Virus record (IMG/VR): IMGVR_UViG_3300009031_000368
Location: 32,001 to 96,000 of that record
Length of the DNA: 64,000 nt
Source of the DNA: a virus
Taxonomy: Duplodnaviria > Caudoviricetes
Strand: one strand, 5' to 3'
The notes beneath the pieces were generated by a model. That model was not told the DNA's origin. It saw only the letters and a program-made list of their open reading frames with translations, and made no database searches. Shown here piece by piece: positions 43,956 to 62,014 of the stretch. How positions within the stretch are numbered: the stretch's first letter is position 1; each line of letters starts with the position of its first letter. A program made the position numbers and the translations under genes.

Positions 43956-45455
43956 TTACGGCAGGGTGACGTCGATTACGCCATAGAATTCAGGACGCAA
44001 CAGCTTCTTAGCATATCGCATCTTGATTCCCTTACGCGCCGAGAAGTCGTCAGGATCCTCAAGGGTCTGAGTCAGCTTCATCGGAACGTATGGTGCATAC
44101 ACGTAACCTGAGTCCAGGTAACTCTGTCCCTTAAGACCAACCAGGATTGTAGTCTGGTTAGCCATCAGCGGATCGATATATACCATCATTCGGTTAAACA
44201 GTGTACCGACTGCCTGCACGCCGAAATCACTTGACATCGGGCCATAGCTTGGCTGACGAATATGGGTCTGCATACCGTCGCCACCATATGGATTCTGCAC
44301 ATTCTTGGCATAAACCAGCGGTGCAAAGTCACCATGAGTAGTCAGCTGTTGCATATACGCGGCAATCTTTGGCGAAGTAACGATCCAGTTGGCAGGTGCG
44401 CGCATCGAACCAGTATGGATTTGAGCCGACATGGTGCTGATAACGGTCAACAGACCACGGATTCGGTTAATCTCATTCGGATCATCGCCACCACCAAGGT
44501 CATAACTGTCGGTGTATGAAGCATTGCTGATCAGGTCATTGATGATTTCTCGATCAACTTCAAGCGCCATCTGATTACTGAAGATGGCAACCAGTTCCTG
44601 CTCAGCATCCAGTCCATACATGGACTTCATGTCTTCCTGAGCGGTTGAACTCCATCGCGCCCGCATGCGTCGTTCAGTCGCCTTCACAACCTCCATGCTG
44701 ATTTCGATGTTGATCTCAGGAACCTGATCGTTCATTTCATTGTTGTACCAATAGACGGCAACAATGGTTGCACCATCGGCTGGCGCATCGGTGAACTTCA
44801 GGTTACTGACTCGTCCAGTCGTATAGTTGACGGTTCCGGTACCGGCTCCACCGAATGAGCCAGAACCATCGTCGACAACAACCTGAGTAGAATCATCCGG
44901 GTTGGTTGCCGTAATGGTAACGCTGATACCATTGGTGCTATCCAGTGGTCGCACCGGCTTCCAATTGAGTGTCGCATTCAGTCCTAGACCAGCTCCACCG
45001 TAATTGGTACCATCACCTGTTCCGACTGACTCTTCATCAATCTTTTCAGACGAATAGTTGGCACTGAAGGTCTGGATAACCTTATCGCCAGCAGTAATGG
45101 AACCCTTGGTGGTCGCATACTTGGCTTCGTAATAGAACACGGCGCCGTATGGGCCAGTCATCGGCTGAATTGACACCAATTCGTTAGCAATCAGGTTGGG
45201 GAAAATTCGCCTAATGGCCGGGAACAGATACTTGGTATAGGTAGCAATATTGCCAGTCAAAGTATCTTCATTCAGTGCGCCACGCACGAAGTTATACTGA
45301 TTGTTTAACAGAATGGCGGTTGCATTCCGCTTGTGTGGATCCTTAATGTTGCCAACCAGTGGTGCCCAGTTGCGCACAACCCTATTGACCCAACTATCAT
45401 CCTGAATTGTCCCGCGCACATCTTCCTGCATGGGCTTTCGATTTCTTGCTTGCAT
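43956..45455 (-). CDS. major capsid protein (T4 gp23-like) with an inserted beta-domain
   Basis: A.ELVSIQPMTGP.G.VFY, A.ERRMRARWS..AQEDM..MYGLDAEQEL, E+DREII, YAPYVP, RYAK. Confidence 0.97.
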   Translation of the reverse strand: MQARNRKPMQEDVRGTIQDDSWVNRVVRNWAPLVGNIKDPHKRNATAILLNNQYNFVRGALNEDTLTGNIATYTKYLFPAIRRIFPNLIANELVSIQPMTGPYGAVFYYEAKYATTKGSITAGDKVIQTFSANYSSEKIDEESVGTGDGTNYGGAGLGLNATLNWKPVRPLDSTNGISVTITATNPDDSTQVVVDDGSGSFGGAGTGTVNYTTGRVSNLKFTDAPADGATIVAVYWYNNEMNDQVPEINIEISMEVVKATERRMRARWSSTAQEDMKSMYGLDAEQELVAIFSNQMALEVDREIINDLISNASYTDSYDLGGGDDPNEINRIRGLLTVISTMSAQIHTGSMRAPANWIVTSPKIAAYMQQLTTHGDFAPLVYAKNVQNPYGGDGMQTHIRQPSYGPMSSDFGVQAVGTLFNRMMVYIDPLMANQTTILVGLKGQSYLDSGYVYAPYVPMKLTQTLEDPDDFSARKGIKMRYAKKLLRPEFYGVIDVTLP

Positions 45456-45474: not shown

Positions 45475-48400
45475 TTAATCGTCAAGCCGGTCTGGAAATT
45501 GGACCGGATATGCACCTTTTCCGCCCGATTGTGCTATTAGCTCATCTAGCGGTGTTGATGTTGACTCTGTAAAACTTCTTCTTCCAAATGTGTCTTCTTC
45601 GACACTTCTTTCGTATCCTCTTCGCACACGCTCCCGCGCCTTCTCGGCCGCATACGGATCGTGTCTTGCATTTGAACTTTCTGCTAGAATTCTATCTATT
45701 TTTGATGAAGGTGCGCGTTCGCCGATAAGAGATGTTAATTTTTTACCATTTTTCATCTTATTGACGATTTCTGTTGCCCGGTTGGCACGCTCTTCAAGGA
45801 TTTCAACAGCACTCACATACTTTTGAAGTTCCCTTTCATACTGCTCCTTCATCTTTTCACTATTTTCCTTCAAAGCCTTAAGTCGTGAACCATACTTGCC
45901 TGATTCAATCTTTGCGCGTTCATGTTCTGCCGTCAATGCATTGATTCGGTCTTTTGATTCCGACAACAACTGCCTGGTTTCTGTAACTTCACCAGATAGT
46001 TTTAATGCTCTCGCCTCAGATTCAGTCAACCGCTTAACTTCGGCATTAAGACGATTCAATTCAATCTTTGAATCCCTTAAACAATCCTTACTGGCATCAA
46101 CGGTTGTCCTGGCTTCAGCCAATTCAGATCTAATGTTGGCAATATACTGGTCCTTGGCATCTACCAGTTTGGCCGTTTGGATTTCCACTTCCTTGAGGCG
46201 CTTAAGCTCACTGGATGATTCGGTCAGTAAATCCTTTAGACCTTGAACGCTTGCCGCAACTTCCGATACTTCGGCAAATTCGGCCTTCAACTGTTGGAAT
46301 CCTTCCAGCTGTGTCTTTGCCTTTTGAAGAATTCCACGAAGCTTTTCAACCTCTTCCGCCTTGGCTGATAACGATTCAATTTGATGCTTCAGTTCAATGT
46401 TCTCAACCGCAGCCGTATCGACAGGAATCTTGCCGATTTCCTTTGCCAGACGTTCTGCCAGTTCGTCAATCTCCGGTAATTGCATCGTATTAGTTACGCT
46501 TCCGGCAATTAAATCAACCATCGTGTCCTTGTTTTCATACATTGAAAACTTTTGAGCCAGATGATACTTGATGACTGCCCGTCGTCCAAATTCAACCGAT
46601 TCTGCCAGCTGATTCTTTGCGTCAGCCAGTTCGCATTCAATCCTGGCACCATTCTGCTGTTCACGCTTTACGCTGTTTTCCAAATCCTTAATGTATTCGT
46701 TGGAATCCTCTGAAAAGATGAATGGTCTGATCAGCTTAACGATACCTTCAATGGCCCGCTTAGCGCCAGCAACCGATGGATCTTCCAACATCGATTCACG
46801 CAGGTTGTCGGTCAGCTCATCCTTTGCCGCAACGACATCTTCAATCAATCGCCTGGCATAGATTTCCTTTATTCGCGACGTCTCGGTCCTTATCGCATTA
46901 CTGACCGCTTCCTCAACATCTGATTTGGAATACTGCTTATCGGTTACCGTTTGTTGAGTCGTTTCCAATAGGAACTTGTTGGCTTCCGGAATCGCGCGCT
47001 CAATCTCTTCAGAAATCGTTTTACCAATACGTTTCCTTACTTCCTCAACTGATGAACCGGCGATGCGCTCACTTTCAGCAAAAACATCCGGGTAAGCGGT
47101 TTTTGTGGCTGGATCGTAAACGACATCGAAGGTCATTAACCTGTAATCGTCACCAACAGATTCCGTTCCATCCTCAAGCTTGGTGGTAGATCCGTAACCG
47201 CGTGAACTGATACCAGGGTCTATGCCGGCTTCAATTAATCCAGTCAGAATCTTACCGGTTGGTGTTGGCAGAATTTCAGCTTCGCCGATGATTTCATTGC
47301 CTTCAATTCTTAAATCAGTGATGACGTGACTGACACGCTGAAGCCTTGTTTGCCCATCGCTGTTACCGGTCCAAAACGTATGGCCGTTTTGCTCCATGTA
47401 GAAGTTACCGTGATCAACCGATAGACAATAGATGCGACCAGCATGGTGCTCTTCTTCAATCTTCATGAATCTCTGATCAAGCCAAATGTGCTTGGAATTC
47501 GAGAAGTGCAACTGGTAAAGTGGCACCTTATTTTCTGCTTTGATGATCCTACCGGCGAATTCGTAATCACCATCAGGTTCAATGACAGAAATGCTACCAG
47601 CACGCCCAGTCTTAATCAAACACTCATGAAGGTCTTTTATAAGCTGCTCAGATACAGTGAAGACATCGTTCCTGATATTGGTGACATTTCCATGTCGTAC
47701 CGACTCAGCCTTCACTTCCTTAAACGTCTTTCCCGAATCTCTCCATTCACCATTAACCGTATGGTCATCGGTTCTGCTGTCAACAATTCTGCCATCACCG
47801 ATGGAAAACCAAAACAGCAATTCAGATAATGGACCCGGGCCTAGATTTTTGATCTCTGACGGAATATACTTATTGTAGCAGTCGCCAAGCGGCTTCAGAT
47901 AGTTGTAAAGCCTTGCGTCGTATGTCATATAACCGTCAGCATACTTACTCCATTGAATCTCAGGCGACATCTTGCTTAAGACTTCATCATAAATATACTT
48001 GGTTGACCATTCATTCTTTTGGCAAACAAACACAGCATATCCGCTATGGTTTTCCGACCTGCAACATCCTTCCGCGAGATAAATACCCATAAATGCTGCA
48101 AACACGTTTGCATCTATTACAAGGTCTTTTGACGCATCAGTTTTTGTTCCACGTAGTCCCTGTATGGCAGGCAACGTAAATGTTTTCGGTGATTCTGGAT
48201 TCCATTGAGCAGTTTTCGGAATTGCGGAATGACCATATGAAGCCCTGTTTGTAAAGATGGTTTCAGAAGTAACATACTCCTCAAACTCTCTCTTTTCACC
48301 AGGTCGTGTAACAAGAAGATTCCTGTGACCGGGAGTAAAAGTAGAATCGATACTCCTACCTTTAAAATGGTACACCGGTCCATCGTATGGCTCGTCGATG

Positions 48401-48759
48401 ATGGCATTCACGGTAGAGAGAACGGCTTTGCCATTTTTGCGGGACCAAGCCTTTTCACCTACGCCGATATCCCTGAACTTTTTCCACCCACTTTCAGTAA
48501 GTACTTGAAATTGTTCACTTTTCAGACAAGGATGGTCAAGTTCCCCCAGCAATTTCCTACCTTGCATTTTCTCTTCAAGTCGCTCCAATTCGCGCTTCCA
48601 GAGTGGTAACTCATATCGGCGATTGTTTTCGGTCGGCACACCGGCCAATGCGAACAATCCGCGCAGGTAGAGCTTCCTGTTACCATTGGCGGTAGCTTCA
48701 CCAAGCTCTGATTTGAATTTAAACGGAACAGTATCTATAAGAAGTCGTGGCTTTGTCAT
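45475..48759 (-). CDS. prohead protease (T4 gp21-like) with an intein, fused to a long coiled-coil scaffold; start at MTKPRLL
   Basis: N.N.R.Y, GELDHP, VSH.IT, G.AEIL.TP.G, GISSRGYGS, FDVVYDPA; heptad-rich C-half. Confidence 0.92.
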   Translation of the reverse strand: MTKPRLLIDTVPFKFKSELGEATANGNRKLYLRGLFALAGVPTENNRRYELPLWKRELERLEEKMQGRKLLGELDHPCLKSEQFQVLTESGWKKFRDIGVGEKAWSRKNGKAVLSTVNAIIDEPYDGPVYHFKGRSIDSTFTPGHRNLLVTRPGEKREFEEYVTSETIFTNRASYGHSAIPKTAQWNPESPKTFTLPAIQGLRGTKTDASKDLVIDANVFAAFMGIYLAEGCCRSENHSGYAVFVCQKNEWSTKYIYDEVLSKMSPEIQWSKYADGYMTYDARLYNYLKPLGDCYNKYIPSEIKNLGPGPLSELLFWFSIGDGRIVDSRTDDHTVNGEWRDSGKTFKEVKAESVRHGNVTNIRNDVFTVSEQLIKDLHECLIKTGRAGSISVIEPDGDYEFAGRIIKAENKVPLYQLHFSNSKHIWLDQRFMKIEEEHHAGRIYCLSVDHGNFYMEQNGHTFWTGNSDGQTRLQRVSHVITDLRIEGNEIIGEAEILPTPTGKILTGLIEAGIDPGISSRGYGSTTKLEDGTESVGDDYRLMTFDVVYDPATKTAYPDVFAESERIAGSSVEEVRKRIGKTISEEIERAIPEANKFLLETTQQTVTDKQYSKSDVEEAVSNAIRTETSRIKEIYARRLIEDVVAAKDELTDNLRESMLEDPSVAGAKRAIEGIVKLIRPFIFSEDSNEYIKDLENSVKREQQNGARIECELADAKNQLAESVEFGRRAVIKYHLAQKFSMYENKDTMVDLIAGSVTNTMQLPEIDELAERLAKEIGKIPVDTAAVENIELKHQIESLSAKAEEVEKLRGILQKAKTQLEGFQQLKAEFAEVSEVAASVQGLKDLLTESSSELKRLKEVEIQTAKLVDAKDQYIANIRSELAEARTTVDASKDCLRDSKIELNRLNAEVKRLTESEARALKLSGEVTETRQLLSESKDRINALTAEHERAKIESGKYGSRLKALKENSEKMKEQYERELQKYVSAVEILEERANRATEIVNKMKNGKKLTSLIGERAPSSKIDRILAESSNARHDPYAAEKARERVRRGYERSVEEDTFGRRSFTESTSTPLDELIAQSGGKGAYPVQFPDRLDD
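47362..48528 (-). mobile_element. intein, 389 aa, with LAGLIDADG homing endonuclease
   Basis: Starts Cys (CLKSEQFQVLT..GWK) and ends HGNFY....TFWTGN; +1 extein Ser; FMGIYLAEG and WFSIGDG motifs; excision restores HP|SDG. Confidence 0.93.
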
Positions 48760-48818
48760 ATTAATTTCCATATTTTTGCGCAAAATGTAACCTACAATCA
48801 CGCACTACATCTAACGAT

Positions 48819-51558: not shown

Positions 51559-53292
51559 TCAATATTGTTTCTTTTGCATTTCGCTTCGCAATTCCATCAT
51601 CATAGCCCTTGATTTCCTTACATCTCGGCCAACGACATCCATTCGCTCTGTTAATTCGCCTTCCGCGCGCTTAATTCTTGCATCAAGCAATTTACTGACA
51701 TTCCTTTCAGTCAATTGTCCAGCGTTTCGCTTCGTCGGCTTAACCGGCTTACGGAATGTAATGCTTTCTTCACCATAATCACCGCCGCTGTCCTGATTAT
51801 ATGCGTCTTCAATCTCAGCCTGTTGTTCCATTCCGAATGATTGGGCCTTAGCCTGCGTCTTCCCTTCGTCAATGATTTCATTCCTACGCTGTTTCCTGAT
51901 TTCCACAATCTCGTCATCGGTAAACTGCATGACGTTTTTCAAACACCATGTCAGCGATGTGCTTTCAAGAAGCGATTGTATCGTTTGCGCCTTGGCCGCT
52001 AGTGCTTCAATCTGAGACAGTTCATAAATCATTGTTGGCTTTGTCATTGCCAATGTCCATTCGGATTCGTCTGGATCTTTGTCAATAGCCAATAGGTGTG
52101 CGCGACAGACCTGTTTAAATCCAGTCATGATTTCACGCTGGATATTCATCACAGACCTGGCAAAGTTTACATCGGCATGGCTTAAATGCTTTTCTGGAAT
52201 ATCGGCACCGAATCCCAAATATGCGGCAGGAACCTTTAATGCACCTTGCAGTGCCTCTCTAAATCTATCGATATCTTCAGTTCCAGTCCATCCCAATCCA
52301 CCAATCGTTTCAATCCTTGCAGAATCCTTGCCATCTCGTGTGGGTATCCATAGATTTTCGTTCATCGACAACGGGGTAGCGCGCATATCGAGCCCACCCT
52401 TTTCGACATTGTAAAACTTCTTTTTACTATACTGTTGCTTCAATCTATTGATATATTGTCTGGCTTCAGATTCCGGCATACTGCCAACATCGATAAAGAA
52501 TGCAAGCCGCTCTGGACTTCGTTCCAGCCGATACATCAAGCTGGCATCCTCCATCATGGCAAGACGCTTCCATACCGTCCTGGCCGCTTCAACGGCACTT
52601 ATTCCATATACAGATCTGATGTGTTTGGCGCGCAATCTCCAATGGACTATTTCCCATGGCTTATACAGTATCGCACCAGTTGCCGTTATAGCCTTATCGC
52701 GCGAAGCATTGGTATTGACAAAATATTCCATGTCGGTGTCGTTGAATTCAAACCGCATATTGGTATCTTGTATATATCCCAACGTCGTTCCACTAACATC
52801 CATAATCCTTCGCATGCTGGCAGGCGGGAGATAGTTTATGCCAATGACGCCAGTTTCATCAATAAGTATTTCTCCGTATGAGTTCCCCATGTGTGCCAGT
52901 GTCCTTGCCAATGGCCATATATCGGCTTCAATTTCAAGAGCACCATGTAGGAGACCGATCAATTCAGCCTTTGTCCAATCGTCTTCCGTAACGACCCACA
53001 TGCATATACCACGATTGTAATCCGGTTGTGATATATCGTTGGCATATACGTCAAGTGCCGTTTGGATGTATGAAAAGTCATCCATCGCTTCATAATCTCG
53101 ATACCTGGCATGAAGATCGGCTTCGACTTCCAGCATCGGCCTAATCAACGAATAGTTTGATTCAGATACTCCACCGCTACCATCTACACCGAATGTGCCG
53201 CTAATCGGTGACTTAGATGAGCCGGAAATGCGCGAATCCTTCTTACCGAAATACTGTTTAAATTTATCAGATATATTGTTGGACCAACCCAT
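51559..53292 (-). CDS. portal protein (T4 gp20-like), 577 aa
   Basis: YR.YEAM, IVHWRL, YG.S.+E.AR..WKRL.MMEDA..MYRL.RSPER..F.IDVG, ALKVP...L. Confidence 0.96.
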   Translation of the reverse strand: MGWSNNISDKFKQYFGKKDSRISGSSKSPISGTFGVDGSGGVSESNYSLIRPMLEVEADLHARYRDYEAMDDFSYIQTALDVYANDISQPDYNRGICMWVVTEDDWTKAELIGLLHGALEIEADIWPLARTLAHMGNSYGEILIDETGVIGINYLPPASMRRIMDVSGTTLGYIQDTNMRFEFNDTDMEYFVNTNASRDKAITATGAILYKPWEIVHWRLRAKHIRSVYGISAVEAARTVWKRLAMMEDASLMYRLERSPERLAFFIDVGSMPESEARQYINRLKQQYSKKKFYNVEKGGLDMRATPLSMNENLWIPTRDGKDSARIETIGGLGWTGTEDIDRFREALQGALKVPAAYLGFGADIPEKHLSHADVNFARSVMNIQREIMTGFKQVCRAHLLAIDKDPDESEWTLAMTKPTMIYELSQIEALAAKAQTIQSLLESTSLTWCLKNVMQFTDDEIVEIRKQRRNEIIDEGKTQAKAQSFGMEQQAEIEDAYNQDSGGDYGEESITFRKPVKPTKRNAGQLTERNVSKLLDARIKRAEGELTERMDVVGRDVRKSRAMMMELRSEMQKKQY

Positions 53293-53304: not shown

Positions 53305-55329
53305 CTATTCATCAAATCCGAATATTATTGGTTGCTGGAATGGCTCACGCTTTGTTCTATTGGATGGATTTCGCACACCGATGACCCATGAATCATCTTC
53401 ATACTCTTCACGGCTAAATGAACCAGAGATGATGCCCATCGGACGAGATGGAGGATTTTCGACAAGACTGCAAACGACACCGGATGCCGATACGGCAAGG
53501 TCATCGTGTCCTTCTGTTCCATCAATATTAAGATTCGGATGATCAATGATTCCAGTGTTTGGATCCAGTTCAAGGTTTATCAATTCTCTCCTTAATGGAG
53601 AATATGGATAAACGATCAATCTGTCTTCATAGATGGCTGCTTTAATCCGTTCCAGTGCTCTCGACTTACCAGATTCACCGCTAATCAGCGAATGCTTGAT
53701 GCCACGTTCCTCAAACTTTTGCCGCGTTTCTAAATGATGATAACTATCCGTTGTGCAATGAACGATATTGAATCCATGTGCCTTAAGGTCATATATGAGA
53801 GCGCGCAATGCTCCCGGTGTAATCTCACCATTCTTTGGTGCAATTACTTGCATGATGAAGTCAATATAGATCTCTGGCGAATATTCGATATACTCCGTTC
53901 CATCTGGCGCAAGCTTGACGACATCGATCCATCTTGAAATATGCCCAACACAGATGCCGGCCGGATCTTGTCGGCCAGCTGAAAGGTCGATATGGGCATG
54001 ACGTGGTGCATTTGGATTAATGTGGGGGATGTAAACCTTTTCCTTATATCCGCCTTTTAATCTACGCTCAGCCTGACGGCAAAGTAGGTGCCATTCAAAG
54101 TCGCCCGATTCACCACAAGCCCATGTTTCAACGGTGAATGGATGATATAGCCCTTGTTTGAAACAGTTGTCGATCTTGTCGCGCCGGCCAATAAAGGTCT
54201 TTGTCGGCATCGTGCTGACACCAGCATGGTCGCGGATTGCAAGATCTAGATCGTTTTCAAAGACCTGTCGTAGGAATGGATGGTCTGGAACAGGAACTAT
54301 TTTGGCAAATCTATCCGGCCCTGATATTTCTTTCCTTACATGCTCTACTTCATCATTCGTTAGTATTCTATTTGAACACTGGTCGTCGCCGACCAATACG
54401 TAAAATCTCTCCTTGGGATATTGCTCCGGTATAAGTTCCCATTTTGCATACTCTTTTACCATTATTTTGTTTTTAGAATCTCTCGCAGCCTTCACTCTTT
54501 CATCCGTGAATGATCCAACGACATTCTTGGATGAAGCAAGTATCATGATCCCAGGTTTAATACCCGTTCCAGTAAATCGGCTTCTGATACGAGACAATAA
54601 TGCGGTATATTGTTGGTAGGCGACTCCTTTGTCTGCACGGGCTGATCGTTTACCTTCATAAAAGTTAGCTTCGTCAAGAGCTCCTCCGTAAACGTTTCTA
54701 CCAAGTAAGCCTGGTGATCCTGGAGATGCTGTAATGATTGATATATTTTTGGGGAAGTCTATAACGCCAGCTGATACCTTGTATCCGAGCTGTTTAAAGT
54801 ACGGAGATGATTCCAAGTTTGCAATTATGTCTGCAAAAATACCGCGTCGAACCTGTTGTAAGTCGACCGACAATACACCAAATGCAATGTTTTTACCATC
54901 CATCAATCCAAGCTGCCGTTGTGGATTTGCCAGGCAATATATCTGATACACCATGTAAGGAATTGCAAGCGCGCAGTATGTGCTTTTCCCTGTCCCGACA
55001 CCGCCAGATATAATTGCTTCATAGTAGTCGCCTTCAAACATTTCAATCAAATTTTCGATTAATGGTTTGTATGTTCCGGTGCATACTTCACCAAAATAAT
55101 ATGGATCTGAATAAAACGTCTTAGGCGACACCGGCCGTTCAGAATAATGGACTGATTCCAATACATCCAGGATTTCAGATTCACCACCATTATCTAGCTC
55201 GGCAAGTGCCTGCTCCAATACTTCGCGCTCTTCCGGCGAACATGAAGCAATCATGGCCTGAAGCTCTTCAAATTCCTCTTCCGGCGTTTTTACAGATATA
55301 ATCTTACCGTTAAAATCGATTAGATGCAT
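53305..55329 (-). CDS. terL: terminase large subunit
   Basis: Walker A GGVGTGKST, Walker B GGALDE, RNase H-like HIDLS and HDDLA; upstream of the portal. Confidence 0.92.
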   Translation of the reverse strand: MHLIDFNGKIISVKTPEEEFEELQAMIASCSPEEREVLEQALAELDNGGESEILDVLESVHYSERPVSPKTFYSDPYYFGEVCTGTYKPLIENLIEMFEGDYYEAIISGGVGTGKSTYCALAIPYMVYQIYCLANPQRQLGLMDGKNIAFGVLSVDLQQVRRGIFADIIANLESSPYFKQLGYKVSAGVIDFPKNISIITASPGSPGLLGRNVYGGALDEANFYEGKRSARADKGVAYQQYTALLSRIRSRFTGTGIKPGIMILASSKNVVGSFTDERVKAARDSKNKIMVKEYAKWELIPEQYPKERFYVLVGDDQCSNRILTNDEVEHVRKEISGPDRFAKIVPVPDHPFLRQVFENDLDLAIRDHAGVSTMPTKTFIGRRDKIDNCFKQGLYHPFTVETWACGESGDFEWHLLCRQAERRLKGGYKEKVYIPHINPNAPRHAHIDLSAGRQDPAGICVGHISRWIDVVKLAPDGTEYIEYSPEIYIDFIMQVIAPKNGEITPGALRALIYDLKAHGFNIVHCTTDSYHHLETRQKFEERGIKHSLISGESGKSRALERIKAAIYEDRLIVYPYSPLRRELINLELDPNTGIIDHPNLNIDGTEGHDDLAVSASGVVCSLVENPPSRPMGIISGSFSREEYEDDSWVIGVRNPSNRTKREPFQQPIIFGFDE

Positions 55330-56066
55330 TACTTATCCGCCAACAGTTTAACCGATGTCGCCTGTTCAAGATCGTCACCGTTGAGATTCTTTAGCTTCTT
55401 TGCGCGCTTCAAGATATCCAACAGCTTATTGCGTGAAGCATTGTTCTTGAGCACTTCCGATACTTGACTGCCGACATTCTGTAACACTGAATCCTTTTGA
55501 GATTGCGTGTCCTCCAATGGAATCCCCATATTGACTTTTATCTCGGCGCTTGTTTGTAACAGTGACTGTGAAAGCTTCATCGCATTAGTTACGTTTGGAT
55601 TCAAAAATCCCATACTGGCTTCTTGTTCCATGGCGGTTTCAAGTCTTACAGAATTGAGCGCATGCATTTTATGCAATTCCGTCACTTCATTGATACCGGC
55701 TTCAAGTTTTGCCAGCGCTTTAGCAGCAAACTCTGGGAGATGATGTTGAGCTATTTCACCGGCTGGAATCTTATTCCGACGATACCATGACAATACCGAT
55801 GTCAATGAATCATGATCAATATGTAAATATTCTTGACAATCTTCTTGTATGTATTTAGCAATCACTGAAGGAGTAATCCCTGCTTTCAATCTGGATTCCA
55901 CTTCCGGCCAACATTTGATTCTCGTCAGCTTAGGTGGACTTTTTACAAGTTGCGGACGTCGCACGCTATTGGTAGCTGGCGTAACATCAATAACCTCGAA
56001 TCGCTTTAAATCGTCCGAATCATCGAAATCGAACACTGTCATCTCGATATCTTCATCTTCTGTCAT
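55329..56066 (-). CDS. putative terminase small subunit
   Basis: TAATG-coupled to terL; N-terminal HTH-like segment followed by helices. Confidence 0.5.
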   Translation of the reverse strand: MTEDEDIEMTVFDFDDSDDLKRFEVIDVTPATNSVRRPQLVKSPPKLTRIKCWPEVESRLKAGITPSVIAKYIQEDCQEYLHIDHDSLTSVLSWYRRNKIPAGEIAQHHLPEFAAKALAKLEAGINEVTELHKMHALNSVRLETAMEQEASMGFLNPNVTNAMKLSQSLLQTSAEIKVNMGIPLEDTQSQKDSVLQNVGSQVSEVLKNNASRNKLLDILKRAKKLKNLNGDDLEQATSVKLLADK

Positions 56067-57121: not shown

Positions 57122-57394
57122 TTAAATAAAAACTACTTCTTTAATTCTAACTTCGGTAAGTTCTTTGCGCTTCATCAACTCGCCATAAACTTCGGCACGG
57201 CAACCTGCGGCCATATGGCTTCGGCAGATTTGTACCAAGGTCGGCCCATATGCGTTACAGCGAATTGCTGTAATAAATCCGCCATTACCCTCAACGACAA
57301 GCCTAAACGTCGCGCAGTCAGTTCCACTATTGGTTTCATCGAACAGCGGATCTTCAACCGTTCCAGAAACCATTACATGATTCATACCTCTCAT
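57122..57394 (-). CDS. ssb: single-stranded DNA-binding protein (OB fold only, no acidic tail)
   Basis: MNHV.VSG.V.DP....T.SG...ATFRL, IRC.AYG, G.R.EV.G.L. Confidence 0.75.
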   Translation of the reverse strand: MRGMNHVMVSGTVEDPLFDETNSGTDCATFRLVVEGNGGFITAIRCNAYGPTLVQICRSHMAAGCRAEVYGELMKRKELTEVRIKEVVFI

Positions 57395-57516: not shown

Positions 57517-58044
57517 TTAAATTGATGGTTTGATTGAATCGGTGACTTTATCGGCTTGAAGAACTGTATCTTGAACTTCAATATCTGATTCAACAGTAAC
57601 TACAATCATCCGGACGCCCGGATTTGTTCCATATCTCTTACTGATTGTAATATTTACGACCTGATTATCATCCTTAATGACTACACCTTTTATTGCGTCC
57701 TCGACAAGTTTACAAATATTAGAGCAGTCAGGAGTAACTATTGGTAAAAGCTCATGTTTTAGCGCGGCCTCGTGCTTCTTTTTAGAAAATGAAGTCGGTA
57801 TAGGGAATGTCGCTTCTATCCGGATATGAACCGCGCCAACATATGGTGGTCGTACCGTCTCACCGTTCTGGTACGCTGTTGCCGCATAGAATCTCACTTC
57901 AGCCTCACGGCTCACCGTTTCTGGATCCGCGTATGTTGACACAAATTTTCCGACACGTCTAAATTTTGGAGACTTCTTTCCTGCCGGTTTCCCTGGAACA
58001 AAAATATCAATCAATGTTTGCTGCAACTGATGGCACTCCTTCAA
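57517..58044 (-). CDS. rusA: RusA-family Holliday junction resolvase
   Basis: VPG.P..K..P.F, PD..N..K..EDA..G....DD.QV....ISKRY. Confidence 0.88.
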   Translation of the reverse strand: MKECHQLQQTLIDIFVPGKPAGKKSPKFRRVGKFVSTYADPETVSREAEVRFYAATAYQNGETVRPPYVGAVHIRIEATFPIPTSFSKKKHEAALKHELLPIVTPDCSNICKLVEDAIKGVVIKDDNQVVNITISKRYGTNPGVRMIVVTVESDIEVQDTVLQADKVTDSIKPSI

Positions 58045-58417
58045 TCTCTATATCGCAATGTGTTATGATGAAACCATCATCGATAACGTTATCTGTTGTG
58101 GAACCATATCCGGATAACCTGGCGCTGATTGAATATATGGGCTGTCGTTGTTCAAGAATCTGATGTAAAATATTTCCTTGTGGTGTCGCAACAATTTCGA
58201 TATCTGCGACCACTATATCATCGTCATCAACACACATCTCCGTTACACGGTGTGATACTTCGCCCAGCTTCGAGTCTGACGCTGAACCAGTATAGATACG
58301 ACCATACATTGGAAATATTGCCCGGCCGATGGCACGTTCAACGACTTCTCTGGGATATATGTTGCCATTACGGGTTGGCTGGCCGGTTTTCATTCCTTTC
58401 ACATTACATATCTTCAT
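58007..58417 (-). CDS. prohead-protease paralog lacking the ELDHP His motif
   Basis: PTRNGNIY, VSHRVTE, EIVATPQGNIL and SGYGSTT align with the protease at 45475-48759. Confidence 0.75.
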   Translation of the reverse strand: MKICNVKGMKTGQPTRNGNIYPREVVERAIGRAIFPMYGRIYTGSASDSKLGEVSHRVTEMCVDDDDIVVADIEIVATPQGNILHQILEQRQPIYSISARLSGYGSTTDNVIDDGFIITHCDIEIEGVPSVAANID

Positions 58418-58941
58418 TTACTATCCCGGTGTTCTTTTCTAACCTGTACCAGTAATTGAATTTCTGGCTCAGACAATCCAGTATTCTCTCTAAGATAGAC
58501 AGCATATTGTTCGTCGTCATACCCGCGACTATTGGCATATGATGCAAGCCAAGACACTGTTGTTATTTGTCGCTCTCTCAATATTGAATCAATATCCTCA
58601 TCAGAAAACTTCATTATATTCTTTAACATCCATTGGCTCGAAAGCCTGTCGGCTGCTACATTTCGTTCGTTTTGCAATTTCTCGATTTGTGCATTATTCA
58701 AAACCAGATACTCCACAATAGTCTTTTTGAACTCATCTTCATTGAAGTCATTCATTTCAACATATTGTGCAATCAATTGCGCGGCCATGGTGATGCTGTT
58801 AGACATCTGACTAGATAACCATTCCGGTTCAGGAAATCTGTCACCGTCGATATCTTTCAATACATAATTCCGCATATCACGAACACGGCCCATTTGGATA
58901 TCGATCAATTCACTCATTAAAGTCTTAACGTCCATTATCAT
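58414..58941 (-). CDS. protein containing a portal C-terminal (crown)-like segment
   Basis: QIEKL...SSQWMLKNIMKFSDEDIDSILRER versus portal QIEAL...SLTWCLKNVMQFTDDEIVEIRKQR. Confidence 0.65.
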   Translation of the reverse strand: MIMDVKTLMSELIDIQMGRVRDMRNYVLKDIDGDRFPEPEWLSSQMSNSITMAAQLIAQYVEMNDFNEDEFKKTIVEYLVLNNAQIEKLQNERNVAADRLSSQWMLKNIMKFSDEDIDSILRERQITTVSWLASYANSRGYDDEQYAVYLRENTGLSEPEIQLLVQVRKEHRDSK

Positions 58942-59107
58942 TTCTCCTCTTAATCGCCATTTTTAAGTTGTTAAGATAATGCTTCGCCTGAACATCTGAC
59001 AGACTACCAACATCTATAAAGAATGCCAATCGTTCTGTAACCGGCATACGCTTCATTCTGACTTTTCCATCTGTTCCAATCGTCTTACAATATTTCATAA
59101 CTGTCAT
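58925..59107 (-). CDS. 60-aa protein containing a copy of the portal clip-region segment
   Basis: ERLAFFIDVGS identical to the portal, followed by A..Y.N.LK. Confidence 0.7.
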   Translation of the reverse strand: MTVMKYCKTIGTDGKVRMKRMPVTERLAFFIDVGSLSDVQAKHYLNNLKMAIKRRNDNGR

Positions 59108-59673
59108 CCCTTTCCATATCTGGCTTCAATCGCCAATCTGCCTAGCTCAACTTCATCATCTGACATCATCACGGTATCTGATTCACCAATCTCGTTATAG
59201 GTTATTGGAACCGGTGGGCTAAAAACATATCCGGCATCCCGTTTAGCTTCCGCCTCTACTTTTGACTGCAACTGTTTCAACAGATCTTTAATGGTCTCTG
59301 TTGGTATTTCTTTCATCGCTGCTTCAATAGCCGCTTGCGCCGATGCCATCTCTTCATCGGTAAACCGTCTGGCGCTATTGGTGCCCATCCGGCTCTCAAC
59401 CGTATACCATTTTGGTGTATCGGTTAAGCTGTCACCGGTCGTTGTTTCAGACGTTGTGCCATCTTCAAAGAATGACGCATCATCGATCATTGCACCATAC
59501 TTATGGATGCCGCGTAACGGTTGAAAAGAACATATCGGCGTTGCAACGATTCTAACATGACTGATCTGACTACATCCATGGATGCATCCACCTGGAATAA
59601 ATATTGGCCATGCACTGGTCTGTGTCGTTATCGGACATCCGCACCAACAATTACCTACGTTTTTACTCTCCAT
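59104..59673 (-). CDS. hypothetical protein with a terminase Walker-B-like segment; start corrected to MESKNV
   Basis: LRGIHKYGAMIDDASFFE versus TerL LLGRNVYGGALDEANFYE. Confidence 0.55.
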   Translation of the reverse strand: MESKNVGNCWCGCPITTQTSAWPIFIPGGCIHGCSQISHVRIVATPICSFQPLRGIHKYGAMIDDASFFEDGTTSETTTGDSLTDTPKWYTVESRMGTNSARRFTDEEMASAQAAIEAAMKEIPTETIKDLLKQLQSKVEAEAKRDAGYVFSPPVPITYNEIGESDTVMMSDDEVELGRLAIEARYGKG

Positions 59674-60157
59674 CACACTCGTCCTCTGATTGATCGCAAC
59701 ATTCAAATGTGTGACAGATGCTGTTGACATAAATATTACTTTTGCCTTTTTCTGTAATGATGTAAAAGCTTGGGATAGTCTTTTGTTCAAAGTATGCCAA
59801 GCGCATCGTTACACCTGTTTCTTGCTGAATATCGGAAATATGCTTCAATACTGTTTCAACATTAGGGACGACACGGAATCCAGTTAAACGGCTGTCTGGA
59901 TTAACGAAAGCATTCATGTCAACAGTATCGCCATTTTCTTTAAATGCGAAGCCATTAACCGACGAAACGACTACACTTGGAGTCCACTTTCTGAAAGTAG
60001 TGTGGTGCATGATATCACTGTGTTCAACCATACCGCCAAGCCTGTCTTCCAGACTATCCGACACATATGTTTCCAAGTCTTTAGTCACCCGAGCCACATC
60101 CATTTTCAGAACACCGATATCATCAATAATAAGGTTGACATCACTGACTGTCTTCAT
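59663..60157 (-). CDS. hypothetical protein, tandem paralog B
   Basis: SVNGFAF, VPN, ETGV and EQ.T shared with its neighbour. Confidence 0.7.
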   Translation of the reverse strand: MKTVSDVNLIIDDIGVLKMDVARVTKDLETYVSDSLEDRLGGMVEHSDIMHHTTFRKWTPSVVVSSVNGFAFKENGDTVDMNAFVNPDSRLTGFRVVPNVETVLKHISDIQQETGVTMRLAYFEQKTIPSFYIITEKGKSNIYVNSICHTFECCDQSEDECDGE

Positions 60158-60690
60158 TGTCCGTCTCCATTCGCAAACCAGTCTAAATCGTTAGACTCTT
60201 CAGAATCGCACATACAATTTTCACAATGGTCTTCATAAAATGAAACGTATAACTTATTACGTTCGCCATTCTTGTACACATGAAACCTGTTAACCGTCTG
60301 TTGTTCACAACGGGCAAGCATCACTTCCACACCTGTTTCTTCAGAAATTGCCCTTAAATGTTCCATAACAACATCATGGTTTGGCACAAGCCGTTCTCCG
60401 CCTGTTTCCTCTTGAAAATTAGGACCAATATCAATCGTACCACCATCATCAGTAAATGCAAATCCATTAACAGATGTTACTGCAACGTACGGCCTATATG
60501 GAAACTGAACGTCATGAACATCGCTATCCTGATAGAAATTATCTGTATGAAATACAGGCATACCGATTCTAGCATCCAATTGACTATCGATGTACTCTGA
60601 TAACTGCTGAATCTTTGTATCAATATCAAAACTTAGTGTGGCAGTCTGCCGGATTAATTGTTCCACTTCTTTTGCCATTACCATAAACAA
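60154..60690 (-). CDS. hypothetical protein, tandem paralog A
   Basis: Same shared motifs as paralog B. Confidence 0.7.
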   Translation of the reverse strand: MFMVMAKEVEQLIRQTATLSFDIDTKIQQLSEYIDSQLDARIGMPVFHTDNFYQDSDVHDVQFPYRPYVAVTSVNGFAFTDDGGTIDIGPNFQEETGGERLVPNHDVVMEHLRAISEETGVEVMLARCEQQTVNRFHVYKNGERNKLYVSFYEDHCENCMCDSEESNDLDWFANGDGQ

Positions 60691-60691
60691 T

Positions 60692-61033
60692 TTATCCTTT
60701 CTTAATTGTTTTTACCAAATTGAAAGATGAATCATATACCTTGGTGTCATCGTCAGGCTTTGAACCATACAATGCAACAAATACCGGACAATCGATTTGT
60801 CTCGATAGTTGTTTCAAATAGATTGAGTCACCAATAGCCTCATTAATCGAGGCATTCCTAGCAAAACATATTCCAACGACACCATTGTCATTCGCATATT
60901 TAATCGGAAATTTATATCCTATTGCACTAACAAGCTTATAGCTGTCGGTACGACATAGCGCATCATGTATCCGAGCATTCAAAAGCCAATCTGGCTTTCT
61001 GAATAGTATTTGTTTAATTGTCTCTTGTTTCAT
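60692..61033 (-). CDS. hypothetical protein, 113 aa
   Basis: Packed ORF. Confidence 0.65.
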   Translation of the reverse strand: MKQETIKQILFRKPDWLLNARIHDALCRTDSYKLVSAIGYKFPIKYANDNGVVGICFARNASINEAIGDSIYLKQLSRQIDCPVFVALYGSKPDDDTKVYDSSFNLVKTIKKG

Positions 61034-61045
61034 TTTGCAATTTAC

Positions 61046-62014
61046 CTACACTGAGAAACAAATATCTTCCAACTGACATTCCTTAGCTCGTGGACATGAC
61101 CTGGTGCCACATATGCGTTTTGGCAGTGGACCACCATCCAATCCTTCACGCAGCGCAATGATGTTGGATCTGATTTCATCGAACTGTTGTTGGTCTCTAT
61201 TTACGAATACTTCCAGCCAACTATCCTTAATGCTGTTGGTGCTCTTGTCCAGGAATACGAATCTCATCCTACGCCGGTTAGCGGTAGCTAGATAGAATTG
61301 CGCCTGAACCTTATACTTGTCATAAATGTCACCATTCCTGAATCCCTTCATGCTCCATCCGTTGGCTGTTTTGAATTCCCACATATCGGTAGGAATTGGA
61401 TGGAAGCCATCGGTGTGTCCATGAATCCCTAACTCATGGTCTACAAGATAAAGCTCCACATACTCGAACATAACCGGCACAACTTCCCATGCCTCGCCGC
61501 ATTGCTCGCACACTTTATTGGTATACGATTTATCGATTTCCGGATCCCGGTTACGCTTACACTCATTGTGACATTTTACACAAATCAACGTCCCTGACTT
61601 AAATCCACAACCATCGCATCCATCCGGCATAACGGTCGGCTCACTGAATGAACCATGAATCCTGTTACAATTGCTGCACTTCCATTGACCTGTCAACAGC
61701 TTTCGTGGGCCAAGGATTTCGTTCTGAAACACGTAATGCAATCCGGTTCCAATTGCCATCGCCCACTTAATGTCAGAACTCCATGGCTTGGTTCTGATGA
61801 TATCATGACGCGCGGCAAGAACTTCCTCCCTGGCACAGACACCACCTAATCCGCTCGCCCTGATATACGTACCTGATTTCATCGGCCGGATGGTGTCTTC
61901 ACTCTTTAGATTCTCAATACCCCAATCAACAAGCCTTACGTCTCGGATCGGGATGGTTGATTCTTCAACGGTTGAAGTATCCTTTTTTATCGACTTTATA
62001 ATATTGCCTAACAT
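61046..62014 (-). CDS. solo Cas4-like PD-(D/E)XK exonuclease with a multi-CxxC insertion
   Basis: RAS.LG.VC.RE, GT.LH, GHTDG, WEFKT, Q.Q.Y, C-terminal Cys cluster. Confidence 0.85.
   Translation of the reverse strand: MLGNIIKSIKKDTSTVEESTIPIRDVRLVDWGIENLKSEDTIRPMKSGTYIRASGLGGVCAREEVLAARHDIIRTKPWSSDIKWAMAIGTGLHYVFQNEILGPRKLLTGQWKCSNCNRIHGSFSEPTVMPDGCDGCGFKSGTLICVKCHNECKRNRDPEIDKSYTNKVCEQCGEAWEVVPVMFEYVELYLVDHELGIHGHTDGFHPIPTDMWEFKTANGWSMKGFRNGDIYDKYKVQAQFYLATANRRRMRFVFLDKSTNSIKDSWLEVFVNRDQQQFDEIRSNIIALREGLDGGPLPKRICGTRSCPRAKECQLEDICFSV

Follow-up and report, generated by a model that had tools for sequence, protein, structure and literature searches.

Why should a large phage carry, in the middle of a non-structural operon, small genes that resemble pieces of its own head-assembly proteins? 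The question is raised by four adjoining open reading frames (ORF1 to ORF4) in a stretch of 64,000 nucleotides (the window), corresponding to bases 32001-96000 of the 231.7-kb record IMGVR_UViG_3300009031_000368. Because the completeness of this record is estimated at 76%, the genome is probably about 300 kb in size, that of an uncultured, T4-like jumbo phage from groundwater. Near-identical sequence has come from four metagenome studies of groundwater and soil. The explanation favoured here, with a probability of about 0.4, is that selection has maintained ORF1-4 as real accessory genes, the products of which would act as mimics of head-assembly subunits.

All four ORFs are on the minus strand, as is every gene near them, and run from ORF1 (59104-59673) through ORF2 (58925-59107) and ORF3 (58414-58941) to ORF4 (58007-58417). 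A sequence-only reading of the window had described them as intact and coupled, and this was confirmed by direct reading of the overlaps: ATGA overlaps join ORF1 to ORF2 and ORF3 to ORF4, ORF2 and ORF3 overlap by 11-17 nt, and the start of ORF1 and the end of the upstream gene share 11 nt. Shine-Dalgarno-like motifs precede all four starts (GAGGA before ORF1, AGGAG before ORF3), and gene callers on nine independent contigs agree on four genes of 189, 60, 173 and 136 amino acids (aa). The 1667-nt region is 100% tiled by ORFs, whereas coverage in 2000 Markov-1 simulations averaged 24% and did not exceed 77.5%, and zero stops occur across the 560 codons. Per codon, the codon-usage log-likelihood ratio ranges from 0.149 to 0.192 in ORF1-4, and the long genes of the phage have 0.164 +/- 0.05; the score is positive in the annotated frame alone. 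A scan for promoters and terminators gave nothing above the shuffled background. The sequence-only reading was also correct in that the pieces are colinear with the real head module and lie among recombination-type genes, their neighbours being RusA, a Cas4-like exonuclease and an SSB-like gene.

The connection to the portal was found in ORF2 and ORF3, as had been proposed. The real portal (577 aa; 51559-53292, minus strand; Pfam Portal_T4, E 2e-60) is the parent-like relative of both. Residues 17-55 of the 60-aa ORF2 are homologous to the portal stem/clip junction. They align with residues 255-291 of the real portal, with 49% of 39 aa identical (E 1e-10; shuffle p 5e-10), and a 40-portal alignment is matched by hhalign with a probability of 94%. 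To place this segment, the portal was aligned to T4 gp20 and the domain boundaries published for that protein (stem 255-278, clip 279-358, crown 451-524; PMC4493910) were applied. On this map, it corresponds to about residues 275-311 of T4 gp20 and takes in the final part of stem helix alpha5 together with the first strand of the clip and the tip loop, which in T4 is in contact with the terminase. The P, R, F and G residues that are invariant in the family are retained by ORF2, and a subclade-specific string, PERLAFFIDVGS, is common to ORF2, the phage's own portal and the nearest relative of that portal. ORF2 stands at about the same distance from the phage's own portal (19 of 37) as does the portal of this nearest relative (21 of 37). 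The Pfam Portal_T4 score of ORF2 (20.2 bits over 32 aa) falls under the cutoff of 22.9, and coverage by the portal profile is limited to positions 25-61 of ORF2 and 86-138 of ORF3.

ORF3 is 175 aa long, or 173 aa from the start at 58935 that the gene callers prefer, and is predicted to be all-helical. Its residues 81-147 match residues 423-492 of the phage's own portal (E 2e-5; shuffle p 1.6e-5; hhalign 73%), which are the last wing helix and the crown on the T4 map, in line with its earlier description as a portal C-terminus piece; Pfam gives no portal match. A model from AlphaFold2 (AF2) made with portal C-terminal rows consists entirely of helices, with a predicted local distance difference test score (pLDDT) of 74.5 and a predicted template modelling score of 0.40. 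Complex prediction of ORF3 with portal residues 370-577 scored 0.00, which counts neither way. The N-terminal 80 aa were suggested by one MAFFT alignment to be portal helix alpha8, and this was rejected as not significant on testing. ORF3 also holds, at 58769-58780, one copy of a genome-wide 12-bp palindrome, GCAATTGATTGC (codons AQLIAQ), which fits a long residence of ORF3 in this genome. As judged from sequence, ORF2 and ORF3 clearly descend from a portal gene of the phage's own subclade that has been reduced to stem/clip and crown pieces.

The manner in which these copies have diverged suggests that their products matter. Identity at codon positions 1, 2 and 3 is 0.68/0.73/0.32 in the conserved block of ORF2 against the portal (Fisher p 2e-4), 0.43/0.53/0.34 in that of ORF3 (p 0.03) and 0.54/0.75/0.25 in that of ORF4 (p 2e-7). 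The statement of the sequence-only reading that divergence in the best-conserved segment is synonymous was thus partly right: it stands for the conserved residues of the ORF2 block, 12 of 19 of which are written with different synonymous codons (third-position identity of 32% vs about 70% at positions 1 and 2). The amino-acid sequence of ORF2 and ORF3 has been preserved while synonymous sites became saturated. Since positions 1 and 2 are kept where third positions are saturated, the constraint must have acted at the protein level on the small copies and not on their parents alone.

These results bear on the alternative that the ORFs are neutral relics, a partial duplicate or horizontally acquired portal-protease stretch that is eroding in a hypervariable slot, with frames held open by recency or luck and with idle products. 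Of the 424 residues that make up ORF1-3, no more than about 100 can still be recognized as portal-like; the divergence is therefore old, yet the 560 codons contain no stop. A six-frame scan of the whole genome with portal, TerL and mini-protease profiles confined the portal signal to ORF2 and ORF3, with no homology out of frame, which excludes a recently frameshifted gene. Full tiling, ribosome-binding sites, phage-typical codon usage and codon-position asymmetry likewise do not look like decay, as the sequence-only reading had maintained, and the family to which ORF4 belongs is clearly maintained in hundreds of phages. Neutral relics are thus considered unlikely, although some properties of ORF1-3 discussed below are those that relics would have.

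ORF4 (136 aa) had been described as a piece of a dead prohead protease, and both parts of that description hold. It is a stand-alone core of the S77 (T4 gp21/assemblin) fold and matches the S77 domain of the phage's real prohead protease-scaffold fusion (1108 aa; 45475-48801, minus strand) with E 6e-8 and the PHROG head maturation protease family with E 7e-9. Its AF2 model has a pLDDT of 90.4, and the first PDB match by Foldseek is T4 gp21 (5JBL; TM 0.66, probability 1.0), followed by herpesvirus assemblins. The real protease has the canonical motifs GELDHP and GISSRG, and the true proteases of the clade read GELDHP around the catalytic His and GVSSRG at the nucleophile site. In ORF4, Thr43 occupies the position of the catalytic His (T4 H85, GELxHP), a column that holds His in 0 of 40 members of the ORF4 family. 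At the site of the catalytic Ser (T4 S140), an ungapped alignment places Arg100 of ORF4, with Ser in 4 of 40 members, and a gapped alignment places Ser98, in a column with Ser in 8 of 40. Having no His and no conserved Ser, ORF4 is therefore a pseudo-protease; on the strength of these alignments, it is read as a catalytically dead S77-fold protein.

A search of 1.84 billion representatives with ORF4 returned 372 clusters at E <= 0.001. The best 150 matches are mostly stand-alone proteins of 110-160 aa, which align to ORF4 over its full length with 30-41% identity. This family, referred to here as mini-S77 and made up of proteins of roughly 120-150 aa, has motifs of its own (NGRIYP, VSH, TPxG and GxG); 25 of 40 members match Peptidase_S77 (PF03420), and the family alignment matches residues 40-177 of T4 gp21 (hhalign 96%, E 3e-9). 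Mini-S77 is established by these matches as a large family of dead, stand-alone S77-fold proteins in many large phages. A word-index search with ORF4 retrieved only ORF4 itself, and tblastn against cultured phages found none at 1e-3. T4 gp68 and the T4 Inh protease inhibitor were considered as relatives of ORF4 and rejected as unrelated to the mini-S77 family.

ORF4 does not reside in the head module. It sits between ORF3 and RusA, while the real protease adjoins the gp23-type major capsid protein (MCP; 43956-45455, minus strand) and is separated from the portal by two head-module genes without assigned function, also on the minus strand. Mini-S77 genes also occur among non-structural genes in the sequences L012, L013, L022, L023 and L024, where they neighbour genes for a sigma factor, PTH2, RNase H, dCTP deaminase, a GroES-like protein and RNA ligase; one of these phages, L022, of 350 kb, carries two copies. 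No ORF1-3 homologues and no portal-like fragments were found at the mini-S77 loci of other large phages. The proposal that all four ORFs are pieces of the phage's own genes is thus not supported in the case of ORF4, a member of a widespread, independent family that elsewhere stands without portal fragments. This company suggests a second alternative, in which ORF1-4 are small functional proteins unrelated to head assembly, portal and protease folds having been co-opted for, e.g., DNA metabolism or host takeover. The genes around mini-S77 elsewhere are those that such co-option would predict, as is the operon of ORF1-4 itself, with its exonuclease, RusA and SSB-like genes. However, the segments kept are exactly those interaction elements that are best conserved in the parents, namely the stem/clip junction, the crown and the protease core.

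In contrast to ORF2-4, ORF1 (189 aa) could not be linked to a head protein. It has a Cys/His-rich N-terminus and an A/E/K-rich, helical C-terminal half, and gave no match in Pfam or PHROG. The sequence-only reading had called it terminase-like, with the real large terminase TerL (674 aa; 53305-55329, minus strand) as the proposed parent, a link that is not supported. The sole likeness to TerL is a Walker-B-like motif of 20-28 aa (YGAMIDDASFFE in ORF1 vs YGGALDEANFYE in TerL), in which ORF1 has DD at the invariant DE of TerL; a Walker A-like stretch is not seen in the ORF1 sequence. Residues 53-80 of ORF1 align with TerL 208-235 at a BLAST E of 0.008, whereas hhalign gives E 0.18 and a probability of 0.3%, the TerL profile gives no match, and by shuffling (p 0.012) the match is no stronger than that of ORF1 to MCP, protease or portal. 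Two other parents were tried and rejected. A portal N-terminus reached only E 0.048 and a probability of 1% with the portal profile, and a TerS-like origin was suggested by similarity to the 245-aa product of a gene that occupies the TerS position (g245; 55329-56066, minus strand; a putative TerS), which was gone after composition correction. ORF1 is thus an orphan of unassigned origin.

The four ORFs form part of a block (57517-61033, minus strand) that also includes g113, the tandem paralogs g178 and g164, and RusA. The block is flanked by a conserved Cas4-like exonuclease (61046-62014, minus strand) on one side and by an SSB-like gene (57122-57394, minus strand) on the other, and it is a hypervariable slot in a non-structural operon that includes the exonuclease and RusA. 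Several observations on this slot and on the ORFs themselves weigh against the view that ORF1-4 are selected mimics, and some of them would suit neutral relics. L017, a phage of 306 kb with an MCP identity of 70%, is the closest relative. It retains the flanking exonuclease, the SSB-like gene, g292, g245, TerL and the portal; however, the syntenic place is taken by two unrelated genes (97 and 184 aa), and the whole block is missing. No portal fragments were found within 10 kb of the portals of L017, L019, L026 and L027. Because these four relatives are without portal fragments and L017 is without the block, ORF1-3 may be lineage-specific and dispensable.

Searches for homologues of ORF1-3 point in the same direction. 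A pattern scan of viral contigs with ORF3 found no homologue, tblastn of ORF1 and ORF3 against 50,697 phage genomes found none, and blastn of the region against cultured phages gave no match. Diverged orthologues of ORF1-3 were not found in the searches made, of which the exhaustive profile search used ORF4 only and none searched ORF2 on its own. Nine metagenome contigs are 99.95-100% identical and have zero variants within ORF1-4. Adjacency of ORF4 to portal pieces is seen in this phage alone; the 'module' may thus reflect genes brought side by side by chance in a variable slot. The predicted folds of two of the proteins are poor, with ESM pLDDT values of 0.46 for ORF1 (ESM Atlas model) and 0.56 for ORF3, and the AF2 model of ORF3 had no structural match in the PDB; ESM Atlas searches with ORF1 and with ORF3 gave nothing usable. 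At the clip-tip positions that touch the terminase in T4, there is no conservation between ORF2 and the portal of this phage. In addition, the sequencing runs that contain the sequence are DNA runs only, with no RNA run among them. The absence of homologues (for ORF1 and ORF3 as searched), the closest relatives without the ORFs, the low fold confidence and the replaced, variable region are the points on which the relic explanation rests, and they are set against the protein-level constraint described above.

Some further features of these regions may be recorded here. The tandem paralogs directly upstream of ORF1, of 164 aa (59663-60157, minus strand) and 178 aa (60154-60690, minus strand), share 32% identity (E 4e-25), have no family match and are not present in L017. 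The real protease gene contains an intein of about 389 aa (47362-48528, minus strand) right behind the catalytic-His motif. Its borders are GELDHP followed by CLKSEQ... and HTFWTGN followed by SDGQT, and a LAGLIDADG-like MGIYLAEGC lies within it. The proteases of L017 and L019 are without an intein and read HP-(L/A)-DGQT; the inteins of L017 sit in TerL and the portal instead. A 413-aa protein (L003:163-1404; window 63014 to about 64255, minus strand) gave generic P-loop NTPase matches only (nSTAND/AAA Walker A). It was considered as a TerL paralog and rejected, as the TerL profile gives no match.

Small ORFs that resemble head genes recur in this genome beyond ORF1-4, as far as sequence similarity can indicate. 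In a non-structural region outside the window, a 99-aa ORF (G000:C1:109527-109826, minus strand, equivalent to L021:5528-5827) copies residues 130-174 of the 245-aa protein in the TerS position, with 51% identity over 45 aa (E 2e-11). Also outside the window, a 160-aa ORF (L021:3004-3486, minus strand) has a weak match to N-terminal residues 19-88 of MCP (E 3e-4), and a 224-aa ORF (L021:2343-3017, minus strand) has a weak match to C-terminal residues 412-496 (E 8e-4; Pfam Gp23, E 0.0016); the two are adjacent and colinear with MCP. Among the 14 intragenomic paralog pairs at E < 1e-4, two are of the type in which a small ORF matches a segment of a large protein (ORF2 with the portal, and the 99-aa ORF), and both concern head or packaging genes. 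Similar company was noted around mini-S77 genes in other phages. In L023 (6957-8459), a 347-aa Gp23-like ORF is directly upstream of the mini-S77 gene, and L022 (5302-5730, 8001-8405, 11162-12484, 15138-15317) has two mini-S77 copies, a 440-aa Gp23-like paralog and a 59-aa Gp23 C-terminal piece. These truncated or diverged Gp23-like genes were viewed within +/-8 kb, and the real capsid gene of the phage may be among them. The adjoining Gp23-like genes in L022 and L023, together with the head-related theme set by the TerS-like and MCP-end small ORFs of the present genome, argue against co-option for a role outside head assembly, which is accordingly regarded as doubtful.

If ORF1-4 do encode mimics of assembly subunits, the dead protease would bind the partners of the real one, either its own kind or the core and capsid proteins that bear cleavage sites. 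Similarly, the portal pieces would bind the contact surfaces of clip and crown, which belong to adjacent portal subunits, to the terminase or to neck proteins. The mimics would in this way modulate or poison the assembly or maturation of proheads, with either the phage's own assembly timing or the assembly of a co-infecting relative or satellite as the target.

The sequence-only reading had also offered a defence-related role, in which the fragments titrate host sensors of portal and terminase, as found in Avs systems. In the wider form considered here, early-made fragments would titrate or block host sensors of portal, terminase, protease or capsid, such as the Avs-type STAND NTPases or others. 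The genes are in a non-structural operon that is probably early or middle, and the mimicked set (portal, capsid and TerS-like) overlaps with known sensor targets (PMC13581612). However, published Avs sensors wrap whole folds by broad, enveloping interfaces (PMC13581612), for which reason motifs of 30-70 aa are unlikely ligands of Avs; short fragments would more likely be invisible or activating. No terminase piece was confirmed, and the literature searched gave no report of phage-encoded fragments of structural proteins that serve as decoys. The decoy version is thus weakened, both by the whole-fold recognition of known sensors and by the T4 terminase-contact positions that are not conserved in ORF2, and it appears quite improbable. 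A more general proposal is that large T4-like and jumbo phages have a recurrent class of non-structural genes for truncated, inactive mimics of head proteins (dead protease cores, portal clip and crown pieces, capsid ends and a TerS-like segment). These would jointly control or sabotage capsid assembly by setting prohead timing in the phage itself, by excluding relatives or satellites or by blinding sensors, with the ORF1-4 locus as the most complete example. In this broad form, the proposal is speculative and unlikely to be right.

Phages and their satellites provide other cases that are alike in kind, with proteins that derive from or bind head-assembly components and alter the outcome of assembly. 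T4 gp24 is a vertex paralog of gp23, full length and structural. The satellite proteins CpmA/B of SaPI, Sid of P4 and Ppi/Rpp of PICI hijack head assembly, and they are not fragments of the parts that they bind. Regulation or poisoning of assemblies by pseudo-enzymes and by truncated mimics of subunits is a classic theme; to our knowledge, no such protein has been established for tailed-phage head assembly from the side of the phage.

A closer precedent is the report by Ali et al. (2017) of small, diverged prohead-protease paralogs in phiKZ-like giant phages, namely SPN3US gp117, PhiPA3 gp143 (136 aa) and 201phi2-1 gp206 (145 aa) (PMC5694885). Like ORF4, these proteins stand alone, are some 136-145 aa in length and are remotely paralogous to the T4-gp21-like prohead protease of their own phage; they have no histidine in line with the catalytic residue, their genes lie apart from that of the protease, and their role is likewise unassigned. 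Unlike ORF4, they belong to the S80 (phiKZ) branch and have no reported portal-derived neighbours, and SPN3US gp117 is reported to retain Ser and Asp (PMC5694885), whereas Ser is not conserved in the ORF4 family. The mini-S77 alignment reached only E 0.083 and a probability of 0.7% against PhiPA3 gp143 by hhalign, with only the motif P.G...L.E.G...RG aligned. As PhiPA3 gp143 is not detectably in the ORF4 family, the two groups look like parallel cases.

Compared with T4 gp21 (Peptidase S77, 5JBL) and the herpesvirus assemblins, ORF4 has the same fold but is outside the head module and is without the catalytic His and Ser, the N-terminal 40 or so aa and the C-terminal tail or scaffold extension of gp21. 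In terms of the T4 gp20-type portal (Portal_T4, PF07230; PDB 3JA7), ORF2 keeps the junction of stem alpha5 and clip and ORF3 the crown helices, with the subclade signature shared with the phage's own portal; 577 aa are here represented by 60 + 175 aa in two genes, under the Pfam gathering score, with no wing, stem alpha7 or tunnel loop and with most of the clip missing. The locus is best filed with the head-protein paralogs known from giant phages. Portal-derived mini-proteins are undescribed as far as found, no earlier report having appeared in the literature searched.

Several hundred dead mini-proteases in large phages, together with portal mini-proteins and capsid- and TerS-like fragments, make the role of such genes a testable question. 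If their products bind prohead components, they would represent a new layer of assembly control or of inter-virus conflict. If they do not bind, the locus would stand as a record of how fragments of structural genes are recycled in the accessory regions of jumbo phages.

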